A DNA stretch of 61,479 bases, filler included. It is 8 parts of 8 records of this genome, joined end to end, with 100 filler letters (N's around TTAATTAATTAA, not from the genome) between each part and the next. Parts side by side here need not be neighbours in the genome. Positions count along the whole stretch, not along the records: positions 31,666 to 44,757 come from SRR31156797_21853; 7 more parts are not named here. The stretch is one strand, 5' to 3'. Position 1 is the stretch's first letter. The number at the start of each line of letters is the position of its first letter. This document shows positions 3,027 to 41,695 of the stretch, one piece after another. Made by a program: the position numbers and the translations under genes. The notes beneath the pieces are model-generated. The model did not search any database and was not told the DNA's origin. It was given only the letters and a program-made list of their open reading frames with translations.

Positions 3027-5327
3027 TTACTTTTCATCACTTAGAAGATCATCTATAACAGTTTGACGGTGGGTGATCTCTAGTTTTTTACAAGCACTGG
3101 TAAAGGCTTCATCTTCCCCAACCACATAACACATATTTTTTGCTCTTGTAATAGCTGTATAAAGTAACTTTGTATTATGCATAATAAAATGGCTAAAGCT
3201 CATAGGAATTAAGGCTGTATCATATTCCATCCCCTGAGTTTTATGGATAGTGAGACAATAGGCAAGTGAGATAAGATTATCAAGATCTGAAAAGTCATAA
3301 AATACCACCATATCATCGCTTGGATAAAGAATCACAAGCTTTGTATTTTCGTGATCTATTTTTATCACCATTCCAAGCTGACCATTAAAAACTCTTTTTT
3401 CCATAAATTCATGACTGCCACTTTTATAGGACTTCATGGTTTGTGCTTTCATATTCTCATTTTTGATATGGATCACTTTATCAGCTAGTTTATACATATA
3501 TGTTCTAGTTTGGATCCCCTCTTGTTTTGTATTATTAATAAGCTTTTGAAGATTGATATTAAGGTTTTCTACTCCTAGTGTTCCACTTTTAATAGGAGTG
3601 ATTACTTGAAAAAGAGTTAAAAATCGATCGATCTTTTTTTCGTTGATAAACCTATACATAGGCTCTATATAGTTTGAGGCAAGATTTAAAATAGTATGGA
3701 GGATATTGAGGTTATTTTGATTTCTAAGAGCATTGATCTCATAATCACTTAGAGAATTTTTTTGTGCATAATAGTTTTCTATAGAGACATCTACAAAAGT
3801 AAAATCTTCATACTCCTCTTTATATTCTGGGACATTTCCCTTTCTAATTTCATTGGCAATAAGTGCTATTGCTTGATCTTCATTTTGTCTATAGATCTTT
3901 GTAAGTTTACAAATAGGAGCGAGTTCATACAAAATAGTATCTCTTAAAATATCTCCAGCTCCAATAGCAGGAAGCTGACCATCATCTCCAACAATAATCA
4001 AAGTAGTATCAAGATCAATATTTGAAAGTATTTTATAAAAAGTTACACTATTGATCATGCTTGCTTCATCTATTAAGATCACTTTATAATCAAAGGAGTC
4101 TTTTTCACTTGATTCCATTTTGACAAGAGCTGATTGGATAGTGCTACTTTTATATCCTGTAGTATCAGCGATCCTTTGAGAAGCAATCCCACTTAAAGCC
4201 ATACAATGGATATCATCATACACAACAATCTCTTCAAGAAGCTCTAAAATTGCTCTACTTGAAGTAGATTTACCAGTTCCAGCATAACCGATAAGCAAAA
4301 TAGTATTTTCACCCTCATTGATAAGTTCAACCGCTTTTTTTTGCTCGTCACTTAGTTCAAACCCAAGTGTAGATTGTTTTTTTTCTATATAGCTTTCAAA
4401 ATCACTAATGATCTTTTTTTCTCTTTTATGCTGTGATCGCAGTTTAAAAATATCTAAGATCTTTGTCTCACACATATAATATATTGCAGGGGAATATCTA
4501 TCTTTCGAAGTCTCTTTTATCTTCTCTTCACTTAAAAGAGTAATTACTGCACTTTCATAAAGTGTTTCTTGATCTTTAAATCCAAGAGCATTATTTAAAA
4601 GATCAAAAAGCTGATCTTTTCCGATAGAGCTATTTCCATTAGCTTCACAAAATTCACGTAAGGTATAGTTCATACATGCTGTGATTCTAAAAGAACTATA
4701 TTTATCAATCCCTAGACTAAGTCCTATCTCATCAGCTCTTTTAAACCCTATCCCTTTGATATCTGTAAGCATATATGGATTTTGTTTGATCTTTTCTATT
4801 AAATTGTCTACATGGGAGAAGTGTTGATATATCTTATTGATAAAAGTGCTTGTGACTCCATATTGAGCAAGGAAACTTCCAAGTTCTCTTAGGTGCTTAA
4901 ATTTATTCCAAGAGCTTACTATTTGAGTGAGTTTTTTCTCTTTGATCCCTTTTATCTCTAAAAGTTTTGCTGGAGTATTATCAAGGATCTCACACAACTC
5001 CTCTTCAGAATATTTTGAAGTCATTTCAAGAGCTAGTTTTTTTGAAACCCCTTTTACGATTCGTGTTAGGAAAAAATAGATCTCTGCTTCTTTAAGTTCT
5101 AGTGAAGTAAAGACAAACTGTACTCCATATTTTTGATGGGTATTCCAGCGACCTGTGAGAATAATCTCAGAGCCTACAAGTTTTTCTAAGTCTGTATCAA
5201 AGTATTGTCCACATACTTTTTGATCATTGTCTAATACTGCAATATAGTAGTTGTTTTCAGAGTTAAAAAATAGAATCTTTTTTAAAGTTCCTGAGAGTTT
5301 AAACTCTTTCTCTTCATTAGTAGCCAT
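3027..5327 (-). CDS. recD2: RecD2-like ATP-dependent SF1B DNA helicase
   Basis: N-terminal HhH region (GIGFKRAD); Walker A GYAGTGKS; DEASM; GDDGQLPAIGAG; TIHKTQGMEY; YTAITRAK. Confidence 0.9.
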   Translation of the reverse strand: MATNEEKEFKLSGTLKKILFFNSENNYYIAVLDNDQKVCGQYFDTDLEKLVGSEIILTGRWNTHQKYGVQFVFTSLELKEAEIYFFLTRIVKGVSKKLALEMTSKYSEEELCEILDNTPAKLLEIKGIKEKKLTQIVSSWNKFKHLRELGSFLAQYGVTSTFINKIYQHFSHVDNLIEKIKQNPYMLTDIKGIGFKRADEIGLSLGIDKYSSFRITACMNYTLREFCEANGNSSIGKDQLFDLLNNALGFKDQETLYESAVITLLSEEKIKETSKDRYSPAIYYMCETKILDIFKLRSQHKREKKIISDFESYIEKKQSTLGFELSDEQKKAVELINEGENTILLIGYAGTGKSTSSRAILELLEEIVVYDDIHCMALSGIASQRIADTTGYKSSTIQSALVKMESSEKDSFDYKVILIDEASMINSVTFYKILSNIDLDTTLIIVGDDGQLPAIGAGDILRDTILYELAPICKLTKIYRQNEDQAIALIANEIRKGNVPEYKEEYEDFTFVDVSIENYYAQKNSLSDYEINALRNQNNLNILHTILNLASNYIEPMYRFINEKKIDRFLTLFQVITPIKSGTLGVENLNINLQKLINNTKQEGIQTRTYMYKLADKVIHIKNENMKAQTMKSYKSGSHEFMEKRVFNGQLGMVIKIDHENTKLVILYPSDDMVVFYDFSDLDNLISLAYCLTIHKTQGMEYDTALIPMSFSHFIMHNTKLLYTAITRAKNMCYVVGEDEAFTSACKKLEITHRQTVIDDLLSDEK

Positions 5328-31565: not shown

Positions 31566-31665
31566 NNNNNNNNNNNNNNNNNNNNNNNNNNNNNNNNNNN
31601 NNNNNNNNNTTAATTAATTAANNNNNNNNNNNNNNNNNNNNNNNNNNNNNNNNNNNNNNNNNNNN

Positions 31666-33832
31666 AAAAGTTTCCCAGTCAACACCCGGTGTAAACAATG
31701 CCAATTCAGTAAATGTTTCCGGGTCCGAAGGATCTGTAACTGTACCAAAAGCACAGTCCTGGAGGATGTTACCCTGCTCACCCAGATCAAAATAGATCTT
31801 ATCTGCAGGTTCAATTTCAATGGCCGGGGTAACCAGCATTACCGGATTATCTGTCCAGCTTTGCCTGAAGAAAATTACCTTTCCATCATACCAGTATAAG
31901 AAATCCGAACCTGTCATATGTGTTGTCCAGTCAGAAGGAATTTCAGTATCAAACATTTCGAACCAGTAAAATTGGGGAACTGCTAATGTTATAGTAACAG
32001 AAACATCCTGATCAACAACTGTTACACTACCGGAGTTAGGGTAATATCCTTCTGCCTCGACGTTAATAGCATAAGTACCAGGAACTACATCATTGTATAA
32101 AACAATACCTGCTGTGTTGGTGGTTTTAATACCATTTGATTCCAGCGTTACTTCAGCACCTTCAATTGGATTTTCTTCTTCATCTTCAATAGTAATTTCT
32201 ACAGTATAAGTAGCTGTTGAACTTTCAACATCTAATACAGCGGACTGAACAATGCTTTTATCAGTATCATCCTGCACAAAAACTATTACTGCCAGGTCAT
32301 TGGGAGTCTCCATAAAGGTTAGGCTCATATCATATGATTCACTCAAGGAAACTGATACACCGGTTGACAGTGCATCCAGTGCGGTACCATTGGCATCAGG
32401 CAACATTTTCATCATTACATTATGGAATTCGGTCTCGCCATTTGTACCAACATTTTCAACTGTCAGTTTTTCCACAACCACGATGTGTGCAGTTAGTCCT
32501 GCGGCATAATCATTTAAGGGTGTTAAGTCAGCAGAAATTGAAATCTCCAGGTTTTCATCAATACTTGCCTCGGTGATATCAATTTCAAGTGCAGTTACAT
32601 CATCGGCATAAACATCAAAGATTTCCTGAGATATACTAACTGCAGGTTCGATCTGGTTAGAATTAATATAGAGATCAGGAACCCAGATACATCCATAATA
32701 ATCTCTTCTGACACCACCTTCTACATTATAATATGGGTCACCACTACCAGGCCAGTTCATTTGGTATTTAATAAGTGAATACTCACCTGGATTGGCTCCC
32801 AGAACTTCTTCAATGGCTTCGTTTGCAAATACACAAGGCGCACAAGTTGAACTTGTAAATTCCTCATAAAGAGGTTTTTTTGCTATTAGACCATCCATTA
32901 CCTCAAAGTCAACACTCATCATGTCGTTATCCGGATTTTCATCACCTGATAAATCAACTGTAACCTGCGCAACATAAGTACCTTCAACCGCTACCCAGGC
33001 TGGGAAAGCAACTGAAGTTTCTTCAAAACCTCCCAGATCTGTAACAGTAACAGTTTCAGTATATATTGAAGAGCCACCATTAAGAATTTCAAATACTACA
33101 TCAAAAGTCGCTATTTCAGCCCCTGCATTGCCAACAATTGCTCCAGGTACCACACTCATTCCAGTACCCAATAATAATGGCATATCAACCATAGTAACCC
33201 CGGCATCCAGGGATAATGCTTCGCTTAATAACACATCATCAATGTACCATTGATTTAACTGGAATGAATCACCATCAAAAGTAAATGCAATTTGAAAATT
33301 ATCACTTCCAACATCATCATTATCTATTAATAAGTATTGGGTTTCAGGGCCAACATCGGCCGATATCTCAACTACCCACACTTCGTTCCATGTAGCTCCA
33401 TCACTGGTAGTTTCAACCATTACTGAATAACCTCCACCGTAGTCATTAACGTAATGTTTGAATTCCAGTAGCAGTGCCGAATAGCCATTTGTGGCAATTT
33501 CAGAAGTTACCAGTTTCGAATTTCCAACAAACTGGGGCGTCCAGCTTATCATAGCTTCCGGAGCTTCACCTCCTGCATTATTTGATGTAGCTTCTAACCA
33601 GTTTCCGGCACCATCACCTACAATTGTCCAACCATCAGGTGGGAAAATCCCACTGGAAAAATCCTCAGTAAAAAAAGGCATCTTTGCTATCCAGAATTAT
33701 TCCGGAGGGTTTATAGTCTTTCGAATATTCAACATTTTGTAAAGGCATTCGTGACATATGCTGTGCAAAAGTTACTAATGCAGGCATCAACATTAAGCAA
33801 ACCAGCAATAATTTAAATGTAAGTTTTTTCAT
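31666..33832 (-). CDS. Large secreted adhesin-like protein with Omp28/thioredoxin-like domain; +1 frameshift at 33670-33676; 3' truncated
   Basis: Signal peptide MKKLTFKLLLVCLMLMPALVTFAQ from 33832; adhesin-like FTEDF..FPP.GW; CARDB-like DENPDND; EEFTSSTCAPC; NGETEFHNVMMKMLP. Confidence 0.8.
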
Positions 33833-33859
33833 AGTTTTAAAATTTAATGAATAAAATTG

Positions 33860-34027
33860 TTACTTATTAGTATTAGAATTTCCTTCGGAATTTAATTTGG
33901 ACATGATTTTTTTGAAGGCTTCGGTTTGAATCCTTTTCTTCTCGATAAATTCGCTTAAATCGACACCTTCCGAATTTGAGGTGGAAGGTTTGGGAGAGGA
34001 TGCTTTTTTAGGTTTTTTAGCTGCCAT
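33860..34027 (-). CDS. Small basic protein, 55 aa (MAAKKPKKASSPKPSTSNSEGVDLSEFIEKKRIQTEAFKKIMSKLNSEGNSNTNK)
   Basis: Hand-translated; homologous to 39558-39713; follows a consensus promoter; stop 27 nt before the next ATG. Confidence 0.78.
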   Translation of the reverse strand: MAAKKPKKASSPKPSTSNSEGVDLSEFIEKKRIQTEAFKKIMSKLNSEGNSNTNK

Positions 34028-34051
34028 TTTTGTGGGTTAAAAATTCAGGGT

Positions 34052-34083
34052 CAAAACTAAAATCAGAAAACCCTCAAGCCAAA
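34052..34083 (-). promoter_or_regulatory. Bacteroidota primary-sigma promoter
   Basis: -33 TTTG (34083-34080), 20-nt spacer, -7 TAGTTTTG (34059-34052). Confidence 0.7.
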
Positions 34084-34208
34084 TTTTCTACTGACACAAA
34101 ACCAATAATTGCAGGAAAATCACTGACACAATACTAATACGATGAATAGTAAGGGGTTGTAAATGTGAAATATGGCTTGTGGATGGATGTAATCCGGAAT
34201 CAAAAGTG

Positions 34209-34341
34209 GAGTCCGCTCCGAAAAGCCAAAAACAAGAATTGCCACGAAAACACTAATTCACAAAAACCCCACAAAAGATAGAAAATCAACAATTTGTTTT
34301 TAGTGATTTTGTGGCAAAAAAACACTTTTCAGAGTGGGCTC
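34209..34341. mobile_element. MITE/REP-like element with nested inverted repeats
   Basis: Outer IR GAGTCCGCTCCGAAAAG / CTTTTCAGAGTGGGCTC (14/17); inner IR TTGCCACGAAAACACTAA / TTAGTGATTTTGTGGCAA (16/18). Confidence 0.55.
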
Positions 34342-34372
34342 ATGGGTAAATTACAATATCGTGGCTCGAGGG

Positions 34373-36100
34373 CTAAATTTGAGAAAGGAAAGTAACAAGA
34401 TTGGTCTTTGTATTTACAAGTCCAAGTTTTTTACGTAGGCGGGTCCGGGCCACCTCAATGGTGTGTACCTGCTGGCCCGTTAATTCCGAAACCTCTTTGG
34501 TGGTCATATTTAAACGAAGGAATGCACAGAGCTTTTGTTCATTGGGTGATAAATCAGGAAATTGTTCCAGCAGTTTGCTATAAAATTCACCATGTACCTG
34601 TTTGAACCGGGTTTCAAATTCCTGCCAGATTTCATCATCTGTAGTTTTTTGTAATTCGCGGGCAATTCTTTTAATGGCTGTCTTTGTCTCATCCCTCACA
34701 GCTTCATTTTGGATATCCATTAATTTATCAGCGATTTCAGAAAGGATTTCATTTTTACGCATAAGGATCATTACATTGGAAGCCAGTTCTTTATTTCGAA
34801 TTTCAAGCTCCGATTTAAGTTTGCGTTTTTCAATTTCCTGGTTTTTCCTTTTTAGTCTATATCTATTTATTACAATAATCACAAAAATTATGAGAAAAAA
34901 TAACAGGCTGATTCCGATAAAAATGTAAGTGTACTCCCTTTTTTGCTGTTTTAACCTATTTTCTTGTTCAATTTTATCAAATTCATATAATAGTTCAAGT
35001 TGTGAAAGACGTGTCATTTTTTTCTCTATGTCGAGGCTATCTTTCATCTGATAATGTATCGTACTGTAAAGGTATGCGTTATTAAGATCATTTTTGTTTT
35101 TATATAATTCGTGAAGAAGTATTGCAGCATTATAAATTGTCTTTTTTAGGTTGTTCTTCTGGCCGATATCGTATGCCAACTTTGCGTAATACAAACTACT
35201 GTCTTGTTGATTCAAATCAGAATAATACATCGAAAAATTATTATAAACAGCAGCTAGCTTTGGCAGGTTATTTAATTCTTTAAATATTATAGCTGCAGCA
35301 TTGTAATAGTAAAATGAAGTATCATAGCTTTTTTCATTTTTATATACAGAGCCCAGATTTAAATAATTAATGCCTTCCCATAATCTATTTCCGATTTTTT
35401 TATTGATCTCAATTGCTTCCTTTAAATATGACTTAAAATTCTGAGAGTCTCCCTTATTGCCATAAACAGCAGCAACATTATTAAGCCCTCTTGCAATACC
35501 ATCCAAATCGTCTATTTCAGTTGCTAACGCTAATGATCGCTGAAAATACTCTAAAGCTTCATCATAATTTTGCTGTTCAAAATAATCATTACCTATCCGA
35601 TTTAAAGCTTTGCCTATTCCTTGTTTATCTTTTAGTTTTTCATAAATTACCAGTACCTGAAAATTCAAATCTGAACTTTTTTCAATATCACCTAAATCCA
35701 AATAGTTTCTTGAAATCAGGCCCAGAGACTCCGCCAACTCCTTTTGCAGATTTAGGCTTTCAGCAATCAATCTGGCTTTGTTTCCGAAATCAAGGGAGCT
35801 TCTAATATCGGTTTTAGACCAGTAAATTTCACTTATTTGAAGGTAAGCGCGAAGTTTGCTTTCGTGGTCATTATTTTTTATGGCCAACTCAAGCGTTTGG
35901 TTGGCCAACTCAAGCGCTTTATCAGGATCAGAAGACAACAACAAGTCGGTGAGGTCAATTAAAATGTCAATTTTCTTTTGGATATCCGCTTCCTTTGACA
36001 ATACAATCTCAAGGCTGTCGATTTTATGCTGGTATTGACCAATAAGTTGGCCGGTTAGTAAAAGGAATCCCAGTAGTATGATTTGATATTTGCGAAGCAT
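34373..36100 (-). CDS. Membrane-spanning TPR-sensor / LuxR-type HTH regulator (copy A)
   Basis: Signal peptide, TPR repeats (ALNRIG, GLNNVA, YLNLG), one TM, coiled coil, HTH LSPNEQKLCAFLRLNMTTKEV...ARTRLRKKLGL. Confidence 0.88.
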   Translation of the reverse strand: MLRKYQIILLGFLLLTGQLIGQYQHKIDSLEIVLSKEADIQKKIDILIDLTDLLLSSDPDKALELANQTLELAIKNNDHESKLRAYLQISEIYWSKTDIRSSLDFGNKARLIAESLNLQKELAESLGLISRNYLDLGDIEKSSDLNFQVLVIYEKLKDKQGIGKALNRIGNDYFEQQNYDEALEYFQRSLALATEIDDLDGIARGLNNVAAVYGNKGDSQNFKSYLKEAIEINKKIGNRLWEGINYLNLGSVYKNEKSYDTSFYYYNAAAIIFKELNNLPKLAAVYNNFSMYYSDLNQQDSSLYYAKLAYDIGQKNNLKKTIYNAAILLHELYKNKNDLNNAYLYSTIHYQMKDSLDIEKKMTRLSQLELLYEFDKIEQENRLKQQKREYTYIFIGISLLFFLIIFVIIVINRYRLKRKNQEIEKRKLKSELEIRNKELASNVMILMRKNEILSEIADKLMDIQNEAVRDETKTAIKRIARELQKTTDDEIWQEFETRFKQVHGEFYSKLLEQFPDLSPNEQKLCAFLRLNMTTKEVSELTGQQVHTIEVARTRLRKKLGLVNTKTNLVTFLSQI

Positions 36101-36286: not shown

Positions 36287-39200
36287 TTATTCAATCACCA
36301 GCTTCTCAGTAATTATTTGATTGTTGAAAAAAACTTTTACAAAATAGATACCCGGTTCAAAATCAAAGGTATTAATCTCTGTTTTGCTTGCTGCTGTGTT
36401 TTGTTCAAAAATCAATTGCCCCGAAACGTTGAAGATATTTACTGATTCCATTATGTTTCCTGATTCAATGTAAACAAGATCGGAAGCAGGATTGGGAAAT
36501 ACCCGGGTTGTACTGGCCAGTTTTTCATTTATACCGGTTACAACATCAATGACAAATTCATTAGAAGGGCCAGATTCACCATTTAAATAAACTGAAGTTA
36601 CGTAATATGTATGGGTGCCTATTTCAGGACCAGCATGGGTGTAGGTTGTGTCAGTAGTATAACCGATGTTTTCGAAAACACCGGAGTTATATTTATGATA
36701 TATATTATAGCCTAATAATCCATTACCCAAAGATTTAGATTCTGCTCTTCCTAAACTAATATTATCAAGCGAAGTAGCATTGCCGTCAGTATAATTATTT
36801 TCCACATATTCCCTAAACGCAATATAAATAGGTGTTCCATCTGGAACAATGCTTGTAAGATCGTATGAATAGTAAGTCCAGCCAATTGGAGTACTGCTGG
36901 GTATATCAATTATATCTACAACAATATTGAATGCTTCAGGATCGTCGGGTACACTAGTTGAGATTAAAACCTCTAAATGTTCTGTCCAGTCATCCCGATA
37001 AATACCCATCCAAAAACTAAGTGTATCCCCTTCAGAATAAGTAAGCTGAGGAGTTACTAACCATTGATCGCTTAGGGGGTCTCCACCCGTTAGCCAGGTA
37101 GCAAATGCCTGCTGAAGCCCTCCATTGGGACAAGCAAAAGCTACACCACCAGACCATCCAGGGATTGGTGATCCAACCTGAAGGGATTGCCATCCTGTGC
37201 CACCATCAAGGTTGAATTTGGTCCATCCTTCGGGCAAAAAGTCACCTTCAAAACCCTCAAAGAAATTAGCACTGGGTGTGCTGGGCGCATCCCAGTTTAA
37301 AGTAATATCCTCATTAAATTGCACCTCTGAAGGTCCTGTAAGGTTAGATGGAGCCTCCAATTCTGAAGAATCAACTTTTATCTCAATATGGATGTCATCG
37401 ATATAAATATTCGAATTGCCCGGATCACTAAAGCCGTGCCAACCAATATAGTATGTGCCATCTTCTTCAGGTAAAAATGAAGCATTAACAAATTGGTAAA
37501 CATTGTTATAGGCAAACATCATATCCTCAAATATTGGCTCACTGCTCATCGATGCAGAATTTGCTTCCGTTCCAAATTTAACTTCGAGGTTGTCATAATT
37601 GGAATCGGAATCAGACGTATAGTAAAAATTAACGATATACGTTTCACCACCTTCTAATTCAATACCTGGAGAAAAGAACCAGTCGTCCATTTGTAATGCA
37701 TTATTAGGCTCAATTGCTACATGATTATCGCCGCTATACGGGTTCGCATCCGAACTAATCCACTGCCATTCATCATCATTCGAATTTTCAACAACATTAC
37801 ATGGAGGCATAAAAGGTAGAATTACATCTTCAAAATCTTCAATATATGGTAGTGATACAGAGGCATTACACAGGGTTGCAAAATAATATGGACCAACCCA
37901 GTTACTTATAGATCCACCACCACAATCGGCCTGAACATAAAAGTCGTAATAAGTCCCTGGCTCTAAACTTTCCAGTAAATATGGGTTTTCGTCGGTATAG
38001 ATCATAGCATTTCCGCTTGGTGTAAATCCCATTTCCCCATATTCAATTCTCCATTGAGAGGCTTCACCATTCTCCACCCAATCCAAGATTGCAGATGTTT
38101 GTGTGATTTCACTTGCATTTAAATCAGAAGGGCTGAGGCAAGGCTGTAAATAATCGATGGCAATATTATCCAATGCGATATCCCCGCCTTGATTGTTAAA
38201 TATACCTTTAAATGCAATGTGTTCATCGGTTCCCGTATATTCATCAAAATATACTTCATATTCTTCCATTATATTGGCGTTATTTATTTCCAATACCACC
38301 AGTTCTGTATAGGTAGTGATATCTGTTGGATCAGACATGGTTCCAACTGATAGTTCAGATCCATACGACCAGGAATAGAATTGCAGGTATTTATTTGCAG
38401 CTCCTCCGTCAAGTGCTGGAGTTATTAAAAGCAAGTCTGCATCTAAATCACTAACATTCACTAATCTAACACACTTTGAATTGTCAACACCTGTATTATC
38501 AAAAGATCTAACATTTGCATAAGTATTATTAGAAATAACGATTTTGTACCATTCTTCAGGGATTTCGGGGACTACTACAGATTCAAAATCCTCATACAGG
38601 AGCTCAAAAACTGCAATATCCTTACTCATACTATCATTTTCAGGGTTTTCATCATTGGGGTGGCTTGCAGTAACTTTTGCTTCAAAGTAACCGCCAATTG
38701 ATATCCAAGCAGGGAACGTTATGGAATAAGATTCAAATGAAGCTAAATCGCTTACCATGAGTTCTTCTGAATAAACAGGGGCTCCATCATCAAGGATTTC
38801 GAAAGTTACACTAAATGTAACAGTTTCTAATCCATTGTTTTTTACAACAGCACCTGGTTCATAAGCATCGCCAGCACCCATAGTAGTAGGAATATCAATT
38901 GAAATGACTGCTGCATCGTAAGACATGGTCTCAGCAAGTGCTATATCATCGATATACCAGTTATTGATGTTATATGATGGTCCGTCGAAAGTAAAAGCAA
39001 GTTGGAAATTATCTGAACCCACATCGTCATTATCAATTATAAATTGTAAAGTCTGGGGGCCAATGTCACCATCAACCAGTTCCGACCAGATTTCATTCCA
39101 AGTATTTCCATCGCTTGTTGTTTCAATTTTCACCGTATAGCCACCCATAAAGTCATCAAGGTAATGTTTCATTTCAAATACCAGTTCGCTATAGCCTGAT

Positions 39201-39535
39201 GTTGCAATTTGGGGTGTTACCAACCTGGAAACCCCTGTGAAATCGGGGGAATAAGTCATCGAACCTTCCGGTTCAAAACCACCAGCATAATTGGTGGCAG
39301 ACAAGTACCAGTTATTTTCCCCTTCACCCTGGATTTCCCATCCTGCCGGTGGAAATGCACCATTTGTAAAATCTTCAGTAAATAATGAGTTTCTAACTGT
39401 GAAAGCGGGTGCCCTGTAATTATTATTCACCGACTCATGGCGAATTGAACGTTCACATGCTTCACGCTGCGAAAATGCAAAAATTGAAGTAGTTAATAAG
39501 AGGCATGTAAACAAAATTTTAATTGTATTTTTCAT
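36287..39535 (-). CDS. T9SS-secreted multidomain protein (cleaved-adhesin/choice-of-anchor-J-like, CARDB-like, FN3, type A CTD)
   Basis: Signal peptide MKNTIKILF...AFSQ from ATG 39535; repeated EDFE/EGFE...GW...WL.TP domains; FN3 LEPGTYYDFYVQADC; CTD VFPNPA...GIYFVKV...EKLVIE. Confidence 0.88.
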   Translation of the reverse strand: MKNTIKILFTCLLLTTSIFAFSQREACERSIRHESVNNNYRAPAFTVRNSLFTEDFTNGAFPPAGWEIQGEGENNWYLSATNYAGGFEPEGSMTYSPDFTGVSRLVTPQIATSGYSELVFEMKHYLDDFMGGYTVKIETTSDGNTWNEIWSELVDGDIGPQTLQFIIDNDDVGSDNFQLAFTFDGPSYNINNWYIDDIALAETMSYDAAVISIDIPTTMGAGDAYEPGAVVKNNGLETVTFSVTFEILDDGAPVYSEELMVSDLASFESYSITFPAWISIGGYFEAKVTASHPNDENPENDSMSKDIAVFELLYEDFESVVVPEIPEEWYKIVISNNTYANVRSFDNTGVDNSKCVRLVNVSDLDADLLLITPALDGGAANKYLQFYSWSYGSELSVGTMSDPTDITTYTELVVLEINNANIMEEYEVYFDEYTGTDEHIAFKGIFNNQGGDIALDNIAIDYLQPCLSPSDLNASEITQTSAILDWVENGEASQWRIEYGEMGFTPSGNAMIYTDENPYLLESLEPGTYYDFYVQADCGGGSISNWVGPYYFATLCNASVSLPYIEDFEDVILPFMPPCNVVENSNDDEWQWISSDANPYSGDNHVAIEPNNALQMDDWFFSPGIELEGGETYIVNFYYTSDSDSNYDNLEVKFGTEANSASMSSEPIFEDMMFAYNNVYQFVNASFLPEEDGTYYIGWHGFSDPGNSNIYIDDIHIEIKVDSSELEAPSNLTGPSEVQFNEDITLNWDAPSTPSANFFEGFEGDFLPEGWTKFNLDGGTGWQSLQVGSPIPGWSGGVAFACPNGGLQQAFATWLTGGDPLSDQWLVTPQLTYSEGDTLSFWMGIYRDDWTEHLEVLISTSVPDDPEAFNIVVDIIDIPSSTPIGWTYYSYDLTSIVPDGTPIYIAFREYVENNYTDGNATSLDNISLGRAESKSLGNGLLGYNIYHKYNSGVFENIGYTTDTTYTHAGPEIGTHTYYVTSVYLNGESGPSNEFVIDVVTGINEKLASTTRVFPNPASDLVYIESGNIMESVNIFNVSGQLIFEQNTAASKTEINTFDFEPGIYFVKVFFNNQIITEKLVIE

Positions 39536-39557: not shown

Positions 39558-39713
39558 TTATTTATCGTTATTATCAGCACTATTTAATTTATCCATGATT
39601 TTTTTCAAGGTTTCATTTTGAGTTTTTGTTTTTCGAACGAACTTATTAAATTCATATAGTTCATCCTTATTTTTCGCTCGTTTTTCACTTGATGTTTTTT
39701 TAGTATCAGCCAT
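39558..39713 (-). CDS. Small basic protein, 51 aa (MADTKKTSSEKRAKNKDELYEFNKFVRKTKTQNETLKKIMDKLNSADNNDK)
   Basis: Hand-translated; 12/25 identities to the core of 33860-34027; stop 22 nt before the next ATG. Confidence 0.78.
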   Translation of the reverse strand: MADTKKTSSEKRAKNKDELYEFNKFVRKTKTQNETLKKIMDKLNSADNNDK

Positions 39714-39973: not shown

Positions 39974-41695
39974 CTATATCTGAGAAAGGAAATTAATTAG
40001 GTTGGCTGAAGTATTGGCAATCCCTAGTTTTTTTCGCAAACGTGTTCTTGCAATTTCTATGGTATTAATACGCTGACCTGTTAATTCTGATATTTCTTTG
40101 GTAGTCATATTTAATCGTAGGAAGGCGCAGATCTTTTGTTCGTTTGGTGTTAAGTCGGGAAACCGTTCCAATAGTTTTTCGTAGAATTCATCATGAACCT
40201 GTTTAAACCTGATCTCAAACTCATCCCATACATCGTCTTCGGTTGTGTTTTGTAACTCATTGGCAATTTTCACTATGGCTGATTTCGTTTCTTCTTTTTC
40301 AGCCTCCCTCCTGACTTTCATCAATTTATCTGCGATATCCGAAAGGATTTCATTTTTACGCATTAAAGAAATAACATTAGAGGTAAGTTCTTTATTTTTT
40401 AAACTCAGTTCAGCTTTGATTTGCAGTCTTTTGGCTTTTTCTACCCGGCGCCGATTTAGGAGTGTAATTATAATTAACACTAACAAAAAAACGATGCTGG
40501 TTCCAATTAGAATATAAGTATATTCCCTTTGTTTTTGTGTGTTTCTTTTTTGCTCTTCCATTTTTTCATACTCATAAAGCAATTCCAAATTTGCCAGTTT
40601 TGTCATACCCCGTTCAAAATCTAAACTGTCCTTGGTATTGTATTCTTTTAAACAATACTGATATGCGTTTATGTAATCACCCTGATCAATATATGCTTGA
40701 TGTAAAAGCTTAGCGGCATCATAAACATATTTTTTTAAGTTGACTGATTCAGCGAGGTCAAGGGCTTTTTTCGCATAAAACAGACTTTTTTCAGAATTGG
40801 AAATTTCAGCATAATATGCAGACAGGAACGTGTATACTTCACAAAGTTTGGGTAGGTTGTTTAATTCACTATATAGCTTTTCCGCCTTTTTAAAATAGTA
40901 ATAAGCGGAATCATAATTATCTTCATCAAGATAAATAAAGCCCAGGTTTGCATAATTTACGCCTTCCCATAACTTATGTCCGATTTTTTTATTGATGACT
41001 ATTGCTTTTCTAAGGTTTGTTTTAAAATCCTGGATTCCACCCTTACCGGAATATGATGTGGCAACGTTGTTTAGTCCCCTCGAAATACCAATTGAATCGT
41101 TAATTTCCCCGGATATCTTTAAGGATTTTAAATCATATTCAAGTGCTTTTTCCCAATTTCCGAGCTCATAATAAACGTTTCCTATTTGACTAAGTGCTTT
41201 ACTTATGCCTTTCTTGTAATTAAGATTTTCAAATAATTCCAAAGCCTGGTAATTTAGATCTGCGCTTTTCTCATAACTTCCTAAATCTGCATAATTCTTC
41301 GATATTAACAATAAAGATTCTGCATATTCCTCCTTCATGTTTAGGTTTTCTGCAAGGTTTTTCGCCTCAAAGGCAAAATCCATGGATAACCTGTGATTGG
41401 CCATACTATTATAAACCTCGCTCAAATGCAAATAAGCCTGAAGCCTGAAATTATGATTATTGTTTATTTCAGCAATTTCAAGAACTTGTTGTGCATATGA
41501 TAGTGCACGATCCGGATCATAAGACAGAATTATTTCGGTTAGTTCAGATAAAATTTCCATCTTCGAAAGCGGATCATTTCTGCCCGTCAATAAATTCTCA
41601 AGGCTGTCAGCTATATAAATTGACTGAGCCCACGAAGAGGACATGACAAAAACAAAAAATAATACCTGGATTATTTTAATCATTACTACTTTCAA
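39974..41695 (-). CDS. Membrane-spanning TPR-sensor / LuxR-type HTH regulator (copy B)
   Basis: Same architecture as 34373-36100; NKELTSNVISLMRKNEILS; LTPNEQKICAFLRLNMTTKEI; identical terminus FLSQI. Confidence 0.88.
   Translation of the reverse strand: MKVVMIKIIQVLFFVFVMSSSWAQSIYIADSLENLLTGRNDPLSKMEILSELTEIILSYDPDRALSYAQQVLEIAEINNNHNFRLQAYLHLSEVYNSMANHRLSMDFAFEAKNLAENLNMKEEYAESLLLISKNYADLGSYEKSADLNYQALELFENLNYKKGISKALSQIGNVYYELGNWEKALEYDLKSLKISGEINDSIGISRGLNNVATSYSGKGGIQDFKTNLRKAIVINKKIGHKLWEGVNYANLGFIYLDEDNYDSAYYYFKKAEKLYSELNNLPKLCEVYTFLSAYYAEISNSEKSLFYAKKALDLAESVNLKKYVYDAAKLLHQAYIDQGDYINAYQYCLKEYNTKDSLDFERGMTKLANLELLYEYEKMEEQKRNTQKQREYTYILIGTSIVFLLVLIIITLLNRRRVEKAKRLQIKAELSLKNKELTSNVISLMRKNEILSDIADKLMKVRREAEKEETKSAIVKIANELQNTTEDDVWDEFEIRFKQVHDEFYEKLLERFPDLTPNEQKICAFLRLNMTTKEISELTGQRINTIEIARTRLRKKLGIANTSANLINFLSQI

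Follow-up and report, generated by a model that had tools for sequence, protein, structure and literature searches.

A conserved small protein encoded beside membrane-spanning one-component regulators in Lentimicrobiaceae and its predicted binding to the regulator linker helix

TraM of Agrobacterium is a small, all-helical cytoplasmic protein that is encoded beside the LuxR-type activator TraR and acts as its anti-activator. It is thought to be induced by TraR and to bind TraR, thereby giving feedback. In two further systems, MgrB acts on PhoQ and Sda acts on KinA; each has fewer than 60 residues and attaches to a sensor at its helical signalling core. MgrB inhibits the same system that induces it, and Sda binds the helical dimerisation stalk of its kinase.

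A different class of regulator spans the membrane and lacks phosphorelay domains. Parts of one study describe membrane-spanning one-component regulators as abundant in Bacteroidota (PMC10269533). The main text of a preprint presents BguR as a membrane-spanning one-component activator, with SusR as the only other example described, and reports, in the case of BguR, that a conserved motif separates the regulator gene from the first structural gene (bioRxiv 10.64898/2026.01.10.698779). Signalling by these regulators is described there as unresolved, and neither "small" nor "feedback" appears as a word in that main text. In the main texts covered by full-text literature searches, we found no small-protein partner described for TPR or Y_Y_Y transmembrane LuxR/GerE regulators.

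The window, by which we mean the whole stretch of DNA that was analysed (61,479 bp, G+C 34.7%), contains a region that, when read along the minus strand, is one module duplicated in tandem (Table 1). In module B, regulator B is followed by a 260-nt spacer, small ORF B, 22 nt and the gene for a 1082-aa protein. In module A, regulator A is followed by a 345-nt spacer, small ORF A, 27 nt and a gene with a signal-peptide-like start. A preliminary description of the sequence had proposed an unannotated 55-residue ORF at 33860-34027 without stating its strand. Translation of the minus strand, from a start ATG at 34027 to a TAA stop at 33862-33860, reproduced the residues that it quoted. The regulator that it invoked is likewise real, as 575-aa and 573-aa TPR/TM/HTH proteins are encoded upstream of copies A and B.

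Table 1. Features of the duplicated module. Positions are those of the window.
Feature	Position	Strand	Description
Regulator A	34373..36100	(-)	575 aa; TPR sensor, one membrane helix, linker helix, divergent LuxR/GerE-like HTH
Regulator B	39974..41695	(-)	573 aa; architecture as in regulator A
Small ORF copy A	33860..34027	(-)	55 aa; disordered Lys/Ser/Pro-rich tail, then one amphipathic helix at about residues 17-51
Small ORF copy B	39558..39713	(-)	51-aa paralogue of copy A
Gene after copy A	31618..33832	(-)	ATG at 33832, 27 nt past the copy A stop; signal-peptide-like start
Gene after copy B	36287..39535	(-)	1082 aa; ATG 22 nt past the copy B stop
-7 box TAGTTTTG	34052..34059	(-)	TAnnTTTG match; ends 24 nt before the copy A ATG
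TTGTGTCAGT direct repeats	34090-34099, 34122-34131	(-)	two exact copies, 32 nt apart

Regulators A and B are 54% identical over 569 residues. Their N-terminal part consists of a hydrophobic segment followed by periplasmic TPR repeats, and the repeats are confined to this part of the proteins. The membrane segment lies at residues ~388-412, where hydrophobicity is kept in an alignment of 18 sequences, and the conserved linker helix spans residues ~431-465. Searches of Pfam and NCBIfam reported no phosphorelay family (HisKA, HATPase or receiver) in either regulator. Both proteins combine a periplasmic sensor, a single membrane helix and a helical linker with the lack of phosphorelay domains. At the C-terminus, the Pfam GerE family (PF00196) was matched weakly by regulator B (E 0.025, below the cut-off) and was not reported for regulator A, and the same part of the regulators matches the LuxR-type response regulators TtrR and MctR at E-values of 2e-5 to 1e-3.

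As far as the main text of the preprint describes BguR and SusR, regulators A and B resemble them in their periplasmic sensor, their single membrane helix and their alpha-helical linker, probably in a GerE-like HTH, and in lacking phosphorelay domains. The resemblance to BguR is also apparent through a 970-aa protein encoded at another locus, L034, which contains Reg_prop, Y_Y_Y and GerE domains (GerE above the Pfam cut-off) in a BguR-like architecture, and whose C-terminus is 36% identical to the cytoplasmic 160 aa of regulator A. On the same partial comparison, the regulators here differ from BguR and SusR in their sensor, which is made of TPR repeats rather than a beta-propeller with Y_Y_Y, and in their targets, which are T9SS-secreted proteins instead of SusC/D loci. 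The linker helix is conserved in the Y_Y_Y/GerE regulator of L034 as well, which suggests that this helix has a role of its own, apart from the small protein.

The output module, consisting of the linker helix and the HTH, is present in 6-12 copies per genome in five genomes (G071, G313, G058, G344 and G211), with 49 such places in all. The frames that contain it fall into a TPR type of ~530-630 aa and a propeller/Y_Y_Y type of ~970-1000 aa. Membrane-spanning one-component regulators have thus expanded into many paralogues in these genomes. Tandem regulator genes were observed in two different genomes, at L046 (5399-8010) and L047 (314-2913), together with L057 and L058.

The two small proteins of the window were compared with each other in full. 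They are identical at 19 of 47 positions in a gapless alignment (E 1e-10, single BLASTP comparison), and reading the translations side by side confirmed the ungapped core match of 12 identical residues in 25 on which the preliminary description had been built. A family profile was also run against every stop-to-stop frame of at least 25 aa in the window. Copies A and B were recovered at E-values of 3.5e-21 and 7.1e-20, and the next best frame scored 0.047. Two further features that had been attributed to copy A are seen in its sequence, namely the Lys/Ser/Pro-rich N-terminus and the lack of a signal peptide or transmembrane segment, since the protein contains no hydrophobic stretch long enough for either.

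A HMMER profile built from copy A, copy B and a 91%-identical protein was searched against 1.84 billion representatives and found 52 proteins at E ≤ 1e-3, of which 7 were at E ≤ 1e-10. A homolog search had been recommended earlier as a check, and the 52 relatives indicate a genuine conserved small protein. The family is uniform in length, with 46 of the 52 members spanning 46-61 aa. Five of the six outliers are longer and one is 37 aa; among the alignment rows viewed, which were every second one, three of the longer outliers were displayed and have N-terminal extensions ahead of the aligned methionine. The core consensus is (D/E)L..FI.KKKIQNEALKKII.KLN, and six columns are near-invariant across 54 sequences (M1, F27, Q34, L38, K40 and I41). 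A word-indexed protein search with copy A returned a single match, which is 91% identical, and the closest metagenome relative found by scanning is 62% identical.

Known families offered no counterpart, as no described family was matched by the small proteins above noise or cut-off in Pfam, NCBIfam, PHROGs, the PDB or the ESM Atlas. For copy A, Pfam gave nothing at E ≤ 0.01 and, up to E 1, only NAF (E 0.042, below cut-off), and NCBIfam gave only XkdX (E 0.004) and Lsa (E 0.014), both under their cut-offs. Copy B had no match in NCBIfam. PHROGs returned no match for copy A and one unnamed family for copy B (E 0.0017), and this search lent no support to a phage or defence origin of the small ORF, which was rejected. 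The best match of the small protein in a PDB profile search was a designed helical repeat (E 0.033), and the ESM Atlas contained only unnamed clusters with scores of at most 0.80.

Selection on the small ORF was analyzed with 15 coding sequences, two from the window and 13 from other loci, which form 105 pairs. The 25-codon core showed a pN of 0.30, a pS of 0.86 and a pN/pS of 0.35, and the N- and C-terminal tails showed pN/pS values of 0.78 and 0.87, all of these ratios being rough because synonymous sites are saturated. In the core, identity at the first, second and third codon positions was 0.63, 0.78 and 0.39, which is a three-periodic substitution pattern of the coding type. The core is under purifying selection and the tails, in which composition alone is retained, are not. 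These results agree with the earlier remark that the flanks diverge, and they answer the check for purifying selection that had been proposed with it.

We considered the possibility that the ORF is not a functional gene, but a chance reading frame, or a non-coding RNA structure or DNA binding site that happens to be open. It is short and unannotated, and the ten representatives whose annotation was looked up are listed as "hypothetical protein" or are without a name. Against this possibility, the frame has stayed open over 45-63 aa, and its ATG has kept its place in the alignment, despite the saturation of synonymous sites. In 13 of the 15 sequences, each of the remaining five frames is interrupted by one or more stops. 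In the other two, L032 and L039, one reverse frame is stop-free, so that every sequence has four or more of these five frames closed. No stops or frameshifts were seen within the motif among homologous loci with E ≤ 1e-5, and the family-profile E-values reach 1e-19 to 1e-30. The core substitution pattern together with the closed alternative frames excludes a chance ORF or a purely nucleic-acid element, and we rejected this explanation as exceedingly improbable. The small ORF is a real gene of a conserved and previously undescribed family. The family provides a clean example of a conserved gene of fewer than 60 codons that annotation pipelines have missed or left unnamed.

The genomic context of the family was examined at loci from other genomes and metagenomes. 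Of 58 loci, 47 have a homologue of regulators A and B upstream of the small ORF and in the same orientation (23/26 loci, 19/25 further loci and 5/7 metagenome loci), and the genetic tie between small ORF and regulator that had been surmised from the window is thereby substantiated. The gap between regulator and small ORF is 128-443 nt in 18 of 23 loci and 738-1266 nt in three, and the extended loci L014 and L026 place it at about 220-300 nt. A contig scan with regulator A recovered one true relative, L001 from a Lentimicrobiaceae MAG, in which a regulator 63% identical to A is followed after 366 nt by a 55-aa family member. A second contig from that scan, L002, was discarded as a relative of regulator A, since its match consists of the TPR repeats alone.

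No regulator was detected upstream of 11 of the 58 small ORFs. One of these, L018, is probably a false match, being contained in a frame of 1642 aa, and three others (L071, L080 and L082) have less than 1 kb of upstream sequence. The genuine exceptions are L020, L024, L072, L076, L093, L095 and L100. At L043 (6027-6209), L100 (2254-2445) and L095 (2426-2596), the small ORF has no regulator upstream, yet it lies beside a large secreted-protein gene. At L100 it comes after a T9SS-type gene rather than before it.

The converse association was assessed with the 20 best regulator paralogues of the five genomes, which are at least 44% identical over the cytoplasmic 160 aa. A small ORF follows 14 of these 20, two of the matches being weak (E 5.5e-3 and 2.2e-2). 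Two paralogues are the first of a tandem regulator pair in which the small ORF comes after the second regulator, one is at a contig end and three are without a small ORF. For 10 more distant paralogues (≤43% identity), a significant small ORF was found downstream in none, with L065 partly masked and L059 containing a non-significant candidate. The pairing of regulator and small ORF is not obligatory, as 11 of 58 small ORFs and three of 20 close regulator paralogues are unpaired.

The small-ORF profile was matched in 17 of 23 genomes in the family of the reference genome G001, in 17 of 401 genomes in a sample of its order and in 2 of 401 genomes in a class-wide sample, G001 being counted in all three tallies. 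The family is found mainly in Lentimicrobiaceae, plus some other genomes of the same order.

The genes downstream of the small ORF commonly encode proteins with features of secretion. The 1082-aa protein after copy B contains four choice-of-anchor J domains, fn3 and a T9SS type A C-terminal sorting domain. In the gene after copy A, Pfam and NCBIfam searches detected no T9SS sorting domain. This gene is split at a run of seven T near 33681-33690. Its upstream fragment is a 55-aa ORF at 33665-33832 (-) that has the signal-peptide-like start and stops just past the run, and its downstream fragment is a 687-aa ORF at 31618-33681 (-) in another frame with an ATG that overlaps the run. The orthologues at L029, L030 and L094 are uninterrupted. 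This split reflects either an error of assembly at the homopolymer or a genuine frameshift or phase switch.

Among 20 extended loci, the gene after the small ORF has a signal-peptide-like hydrophobic start in 17, as judged by eye. In L046 and L047 it encodes an ECF sigma factor, and L044 is unclear. At L046 and L047, the next large gene is located ~500 nt further along. The T9SS type A sorting domain is present in all seven of the large downstream proteins that were tested, and their other domains vary (choice-of-anchor J, Omp28-like and Ycf48-like propeller). The spacer between small ORF and next gene is 2-100 nt in the 16 loci with a next ATG, L001 ending earlier, and the two genes overlap in two further loci.

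The region upstream of the small ORF was inspected for promoter elements. TAnnTTTG is the Bacteroidota -7 promoter consensus. The preliminary description had located such an element 24 nt upstream of the copy A ATG, and the match is indeed found there, reading from 34059 to 34052 on the minus strand. L001 has kept a TAnnTTTG box 25 nt before its ATG. In 15 of 17 loci a box is situated 13-33 nt before the ATG of the small ORF, exact in 7 and one-off in the rest; L037 and L039 have one-off boxes only, further out at 33-48 nt.

Direct repeats are located upstream of the box. The first TTGTGTCAGT repeat begins ~104 nt ahead of the copy A ATG and the second ~75 nt, and ten-mer direct repeats 32-34 nt apart that begin 92-115 nt before the ATG are present in 10 of 17 loci. 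The loci have in common a TTTGTAnnGGT-like frame, which in many is TTTGTAtAGGT-like (the L001 repeats are at 4960-5010). The central bases differ between paralogous modules, with TGTGTCAGT in A and L001 and TGTATAGGT in many others. From their sequence, the repeats are candidate regulator-binding sites that look like paralogue-specific operators. A third exact TTGTGTCAGT copy occurs at 36646-36655 (+), within the gene after copy B; it is probably there by chance, because the window contains 5 matches with one mismatch allowed versus 3.09 expected.

A search of 33500-34500 revealed no terminator-like site. No other ORF comes between the small ORF and the promoter-like region with its direct repeats, as had been suggested when it was described as the first in line. 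From the boxes, the repeats and the lack of a terminator-like site, we infer that a transcript activated from the repeats has the small ORF as its first cistron.

A first cistron may also serve as a translated leader that, in an organism without Shine-Dalgarno sites, loads ribosomes or keeps the mRNA open for the secreted-protein gene, with the peptide itself being functionless. The preliminary description had raised translation coupling as one of its options. In every case the small ORF comes first, with the next gene a short distance away (spacers of 27 and 22 nt in the window), the two overlap at some loci as noted above, and no terminator-like site separates them. However, the core peptide has been conserved while its synonymous sites became saturated, and the same motif is common to the 52 relatives. 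In addition, the length of the spacer is not conserved, and the small ORF tracks the regulator clade and not one type of downstream gene, be it choice-of-anchor J, Ycf48-like, Omp28-like or ECF sigma factor. Because the peptide is conserved and the spacer to the next gene is variable, it is quite improbable that the ORF is purely a coupling leader.

The structure of the small protein was predicted by AlphaFold2 with the 54-sequence alignment. Copy A was modelled as a single helix over residues 17-51, with a mean pLDDT of 75.8 and values of 91-96 over residues 21-40. The predicted helix is amphipathic and highly charged, consistent with the amphipathic helix that had been proposed from the sequence.

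The preliminary description had also recommended a complex prediction with the cytoplasmic part of the regulator. Copy A was folded together with residues 415-575 of regulator A from single sequences, with no alignments. The complex score was 0.62 (0.64, 0.62 and 0.58 in the runs) versus 0.00 for the best of three controls, a level that is reached by 51 of 78 solved complexes and by 2 of 108 mismatched pairs, and the same test is passed by 7 of 44 blindly drawn neighbouring gene pairs; since the regulator was given as a single monomeric fragment of a probable dimer, its exposed dimerisation face could attract any amphipathic helix. The runs share at least 85% of their contacts, and the partner pLDDT is at least 61. 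The model places the conserved helix of the small protein on the cytoplasmic linker helix of the regulator. Its predicted interface comprises residues 21-46 of copy A, which is the conserved core, and residues 436-464 of regulator A in antiparallel orientation, plus 480-495 and 530-542. Among the regulator residues contacted in the model are N450, which is invariant in the 18-sequence alignment, and V443, K449/E451 and L460, which are nearly so.

The two families were also related to each other by profile-profile comparison. The top match of the small-protein family in the regulator family was the linker helix, at a level that is not significant (probability 0.7%, E 0.081). In this alignment the core QNEALKKII.KLN is paired with KNEiL.eI..KL of the linker helix in regulator residues 431-476. 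The binding of the small protein to the cytoplasmic linker helix of its regulator is a prediction, one that the complex model supports, with the caveat that the conservation of the contacted helix extends to the Y_Y_Y/GerE regulator of L034.

A real small protein may instead act on another target, such as DNA or RNA polymerase at the promoter, an ECF sigma factor, or the downstream cargo before its secretion. The basic disordered tail with one helix would suit a co-activator, the small ORF directly precedes an ECF sigma factor gene in L046 and L047, and at L043 and L100, where no regulator lies upstream, it is still found next to a large gene for a secreted protein. On the other hand, the strongest signal is the linkage to the regulator clade, both in the 47 of 58 loci and in the contrast between the closest paralogues (14/20) and the distant ones (0/10). 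The tail is poorly conserved (pN/pS 0.78, on the rough scale given above), the downstream proteins differ too much among themselves to be served by one specific chaperone, and the complex model lays the conserved core on the regulator. We therefore consider a different target to be possible but rather unlikely.

If the small protein does bind the regulator, TraM would be the nearest parallel, in that a small helical cytoplasmic protein is encoded beside a probable LuxR/GerE-type regulator, its binding being a prediction in the present case. The two are unrelated in sequence, and copy A has no match to the TraM family of Pfam. The family protein is about half the size of TraM and is one helix as opposed to a helical bundle. 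Its partner is a membrane-anchored one-component regulator, on which the predicted contact is mainly to the linker helix. Neither MgrB nor Sda was matched by copy A in Pfam and PDB searches. MgrB is a membrane peptide whereas copy A has no hydrophobic segment, and Sda is a helical hairpin whereas copy A is one helix in the AlphaFold2 model. The targets differ too, those of MgrB and Sda being histidine kinases and the one here a membrane-spanning transcription factor. The modulation of sensors or LuxR-type activators by small proteins is known in kind. The family described here is unrelated in sequence to the known ones, and the literature searches found no small-protein partner for its partner class, the TPR-sensor membrane-spanning one-component regulators that would drive T9SS cargo genes.

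We propose that the regulated transcript begins with the small ORF as its first cistron and that this ORF encodes a regulator-binding modulator, probably one acting in feedback, a proposal to which we assign an even chance of being correct. In this scheme, the regulator would bind the candidate direct repeats and activate the promoter, and the small protein would be the first product of the transcript so activated. Its helix would pack antiparallel on the conserved cytoplasmic linker helix of the regulator and touch the HTH, and this packing would alter the output of the regulator. Negative feedback may be the most likely direction, by analogy with TraM-TraR and MgrB-PhoQ, although we hold even this direction to be doubtful. 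A more specific version is that the small proteins mimic the linker helix of their own regulator and replace the second regulator subunit, which would create a private feedback loop for each of the 6-12 regulator paralogues of a genome. We regard such mimicry as speculative and on balance unlikely.

The tandemly duplicated module in the window constitutes a natural pair for comparing cognate and non-cognate combinations of small protein and regulator. If true, a dedicated small-protein partner within the regulated transcript would add a new component to the one-component signalling route, and it would offer experimental access to the linker helix, through which the signal passes from the membrane to DNA. 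Should the mimicry of the linker helix prove true, it would represent a previously unrecognised means of control and insulation of transmembrane one-component regulators in Bacteroidota.
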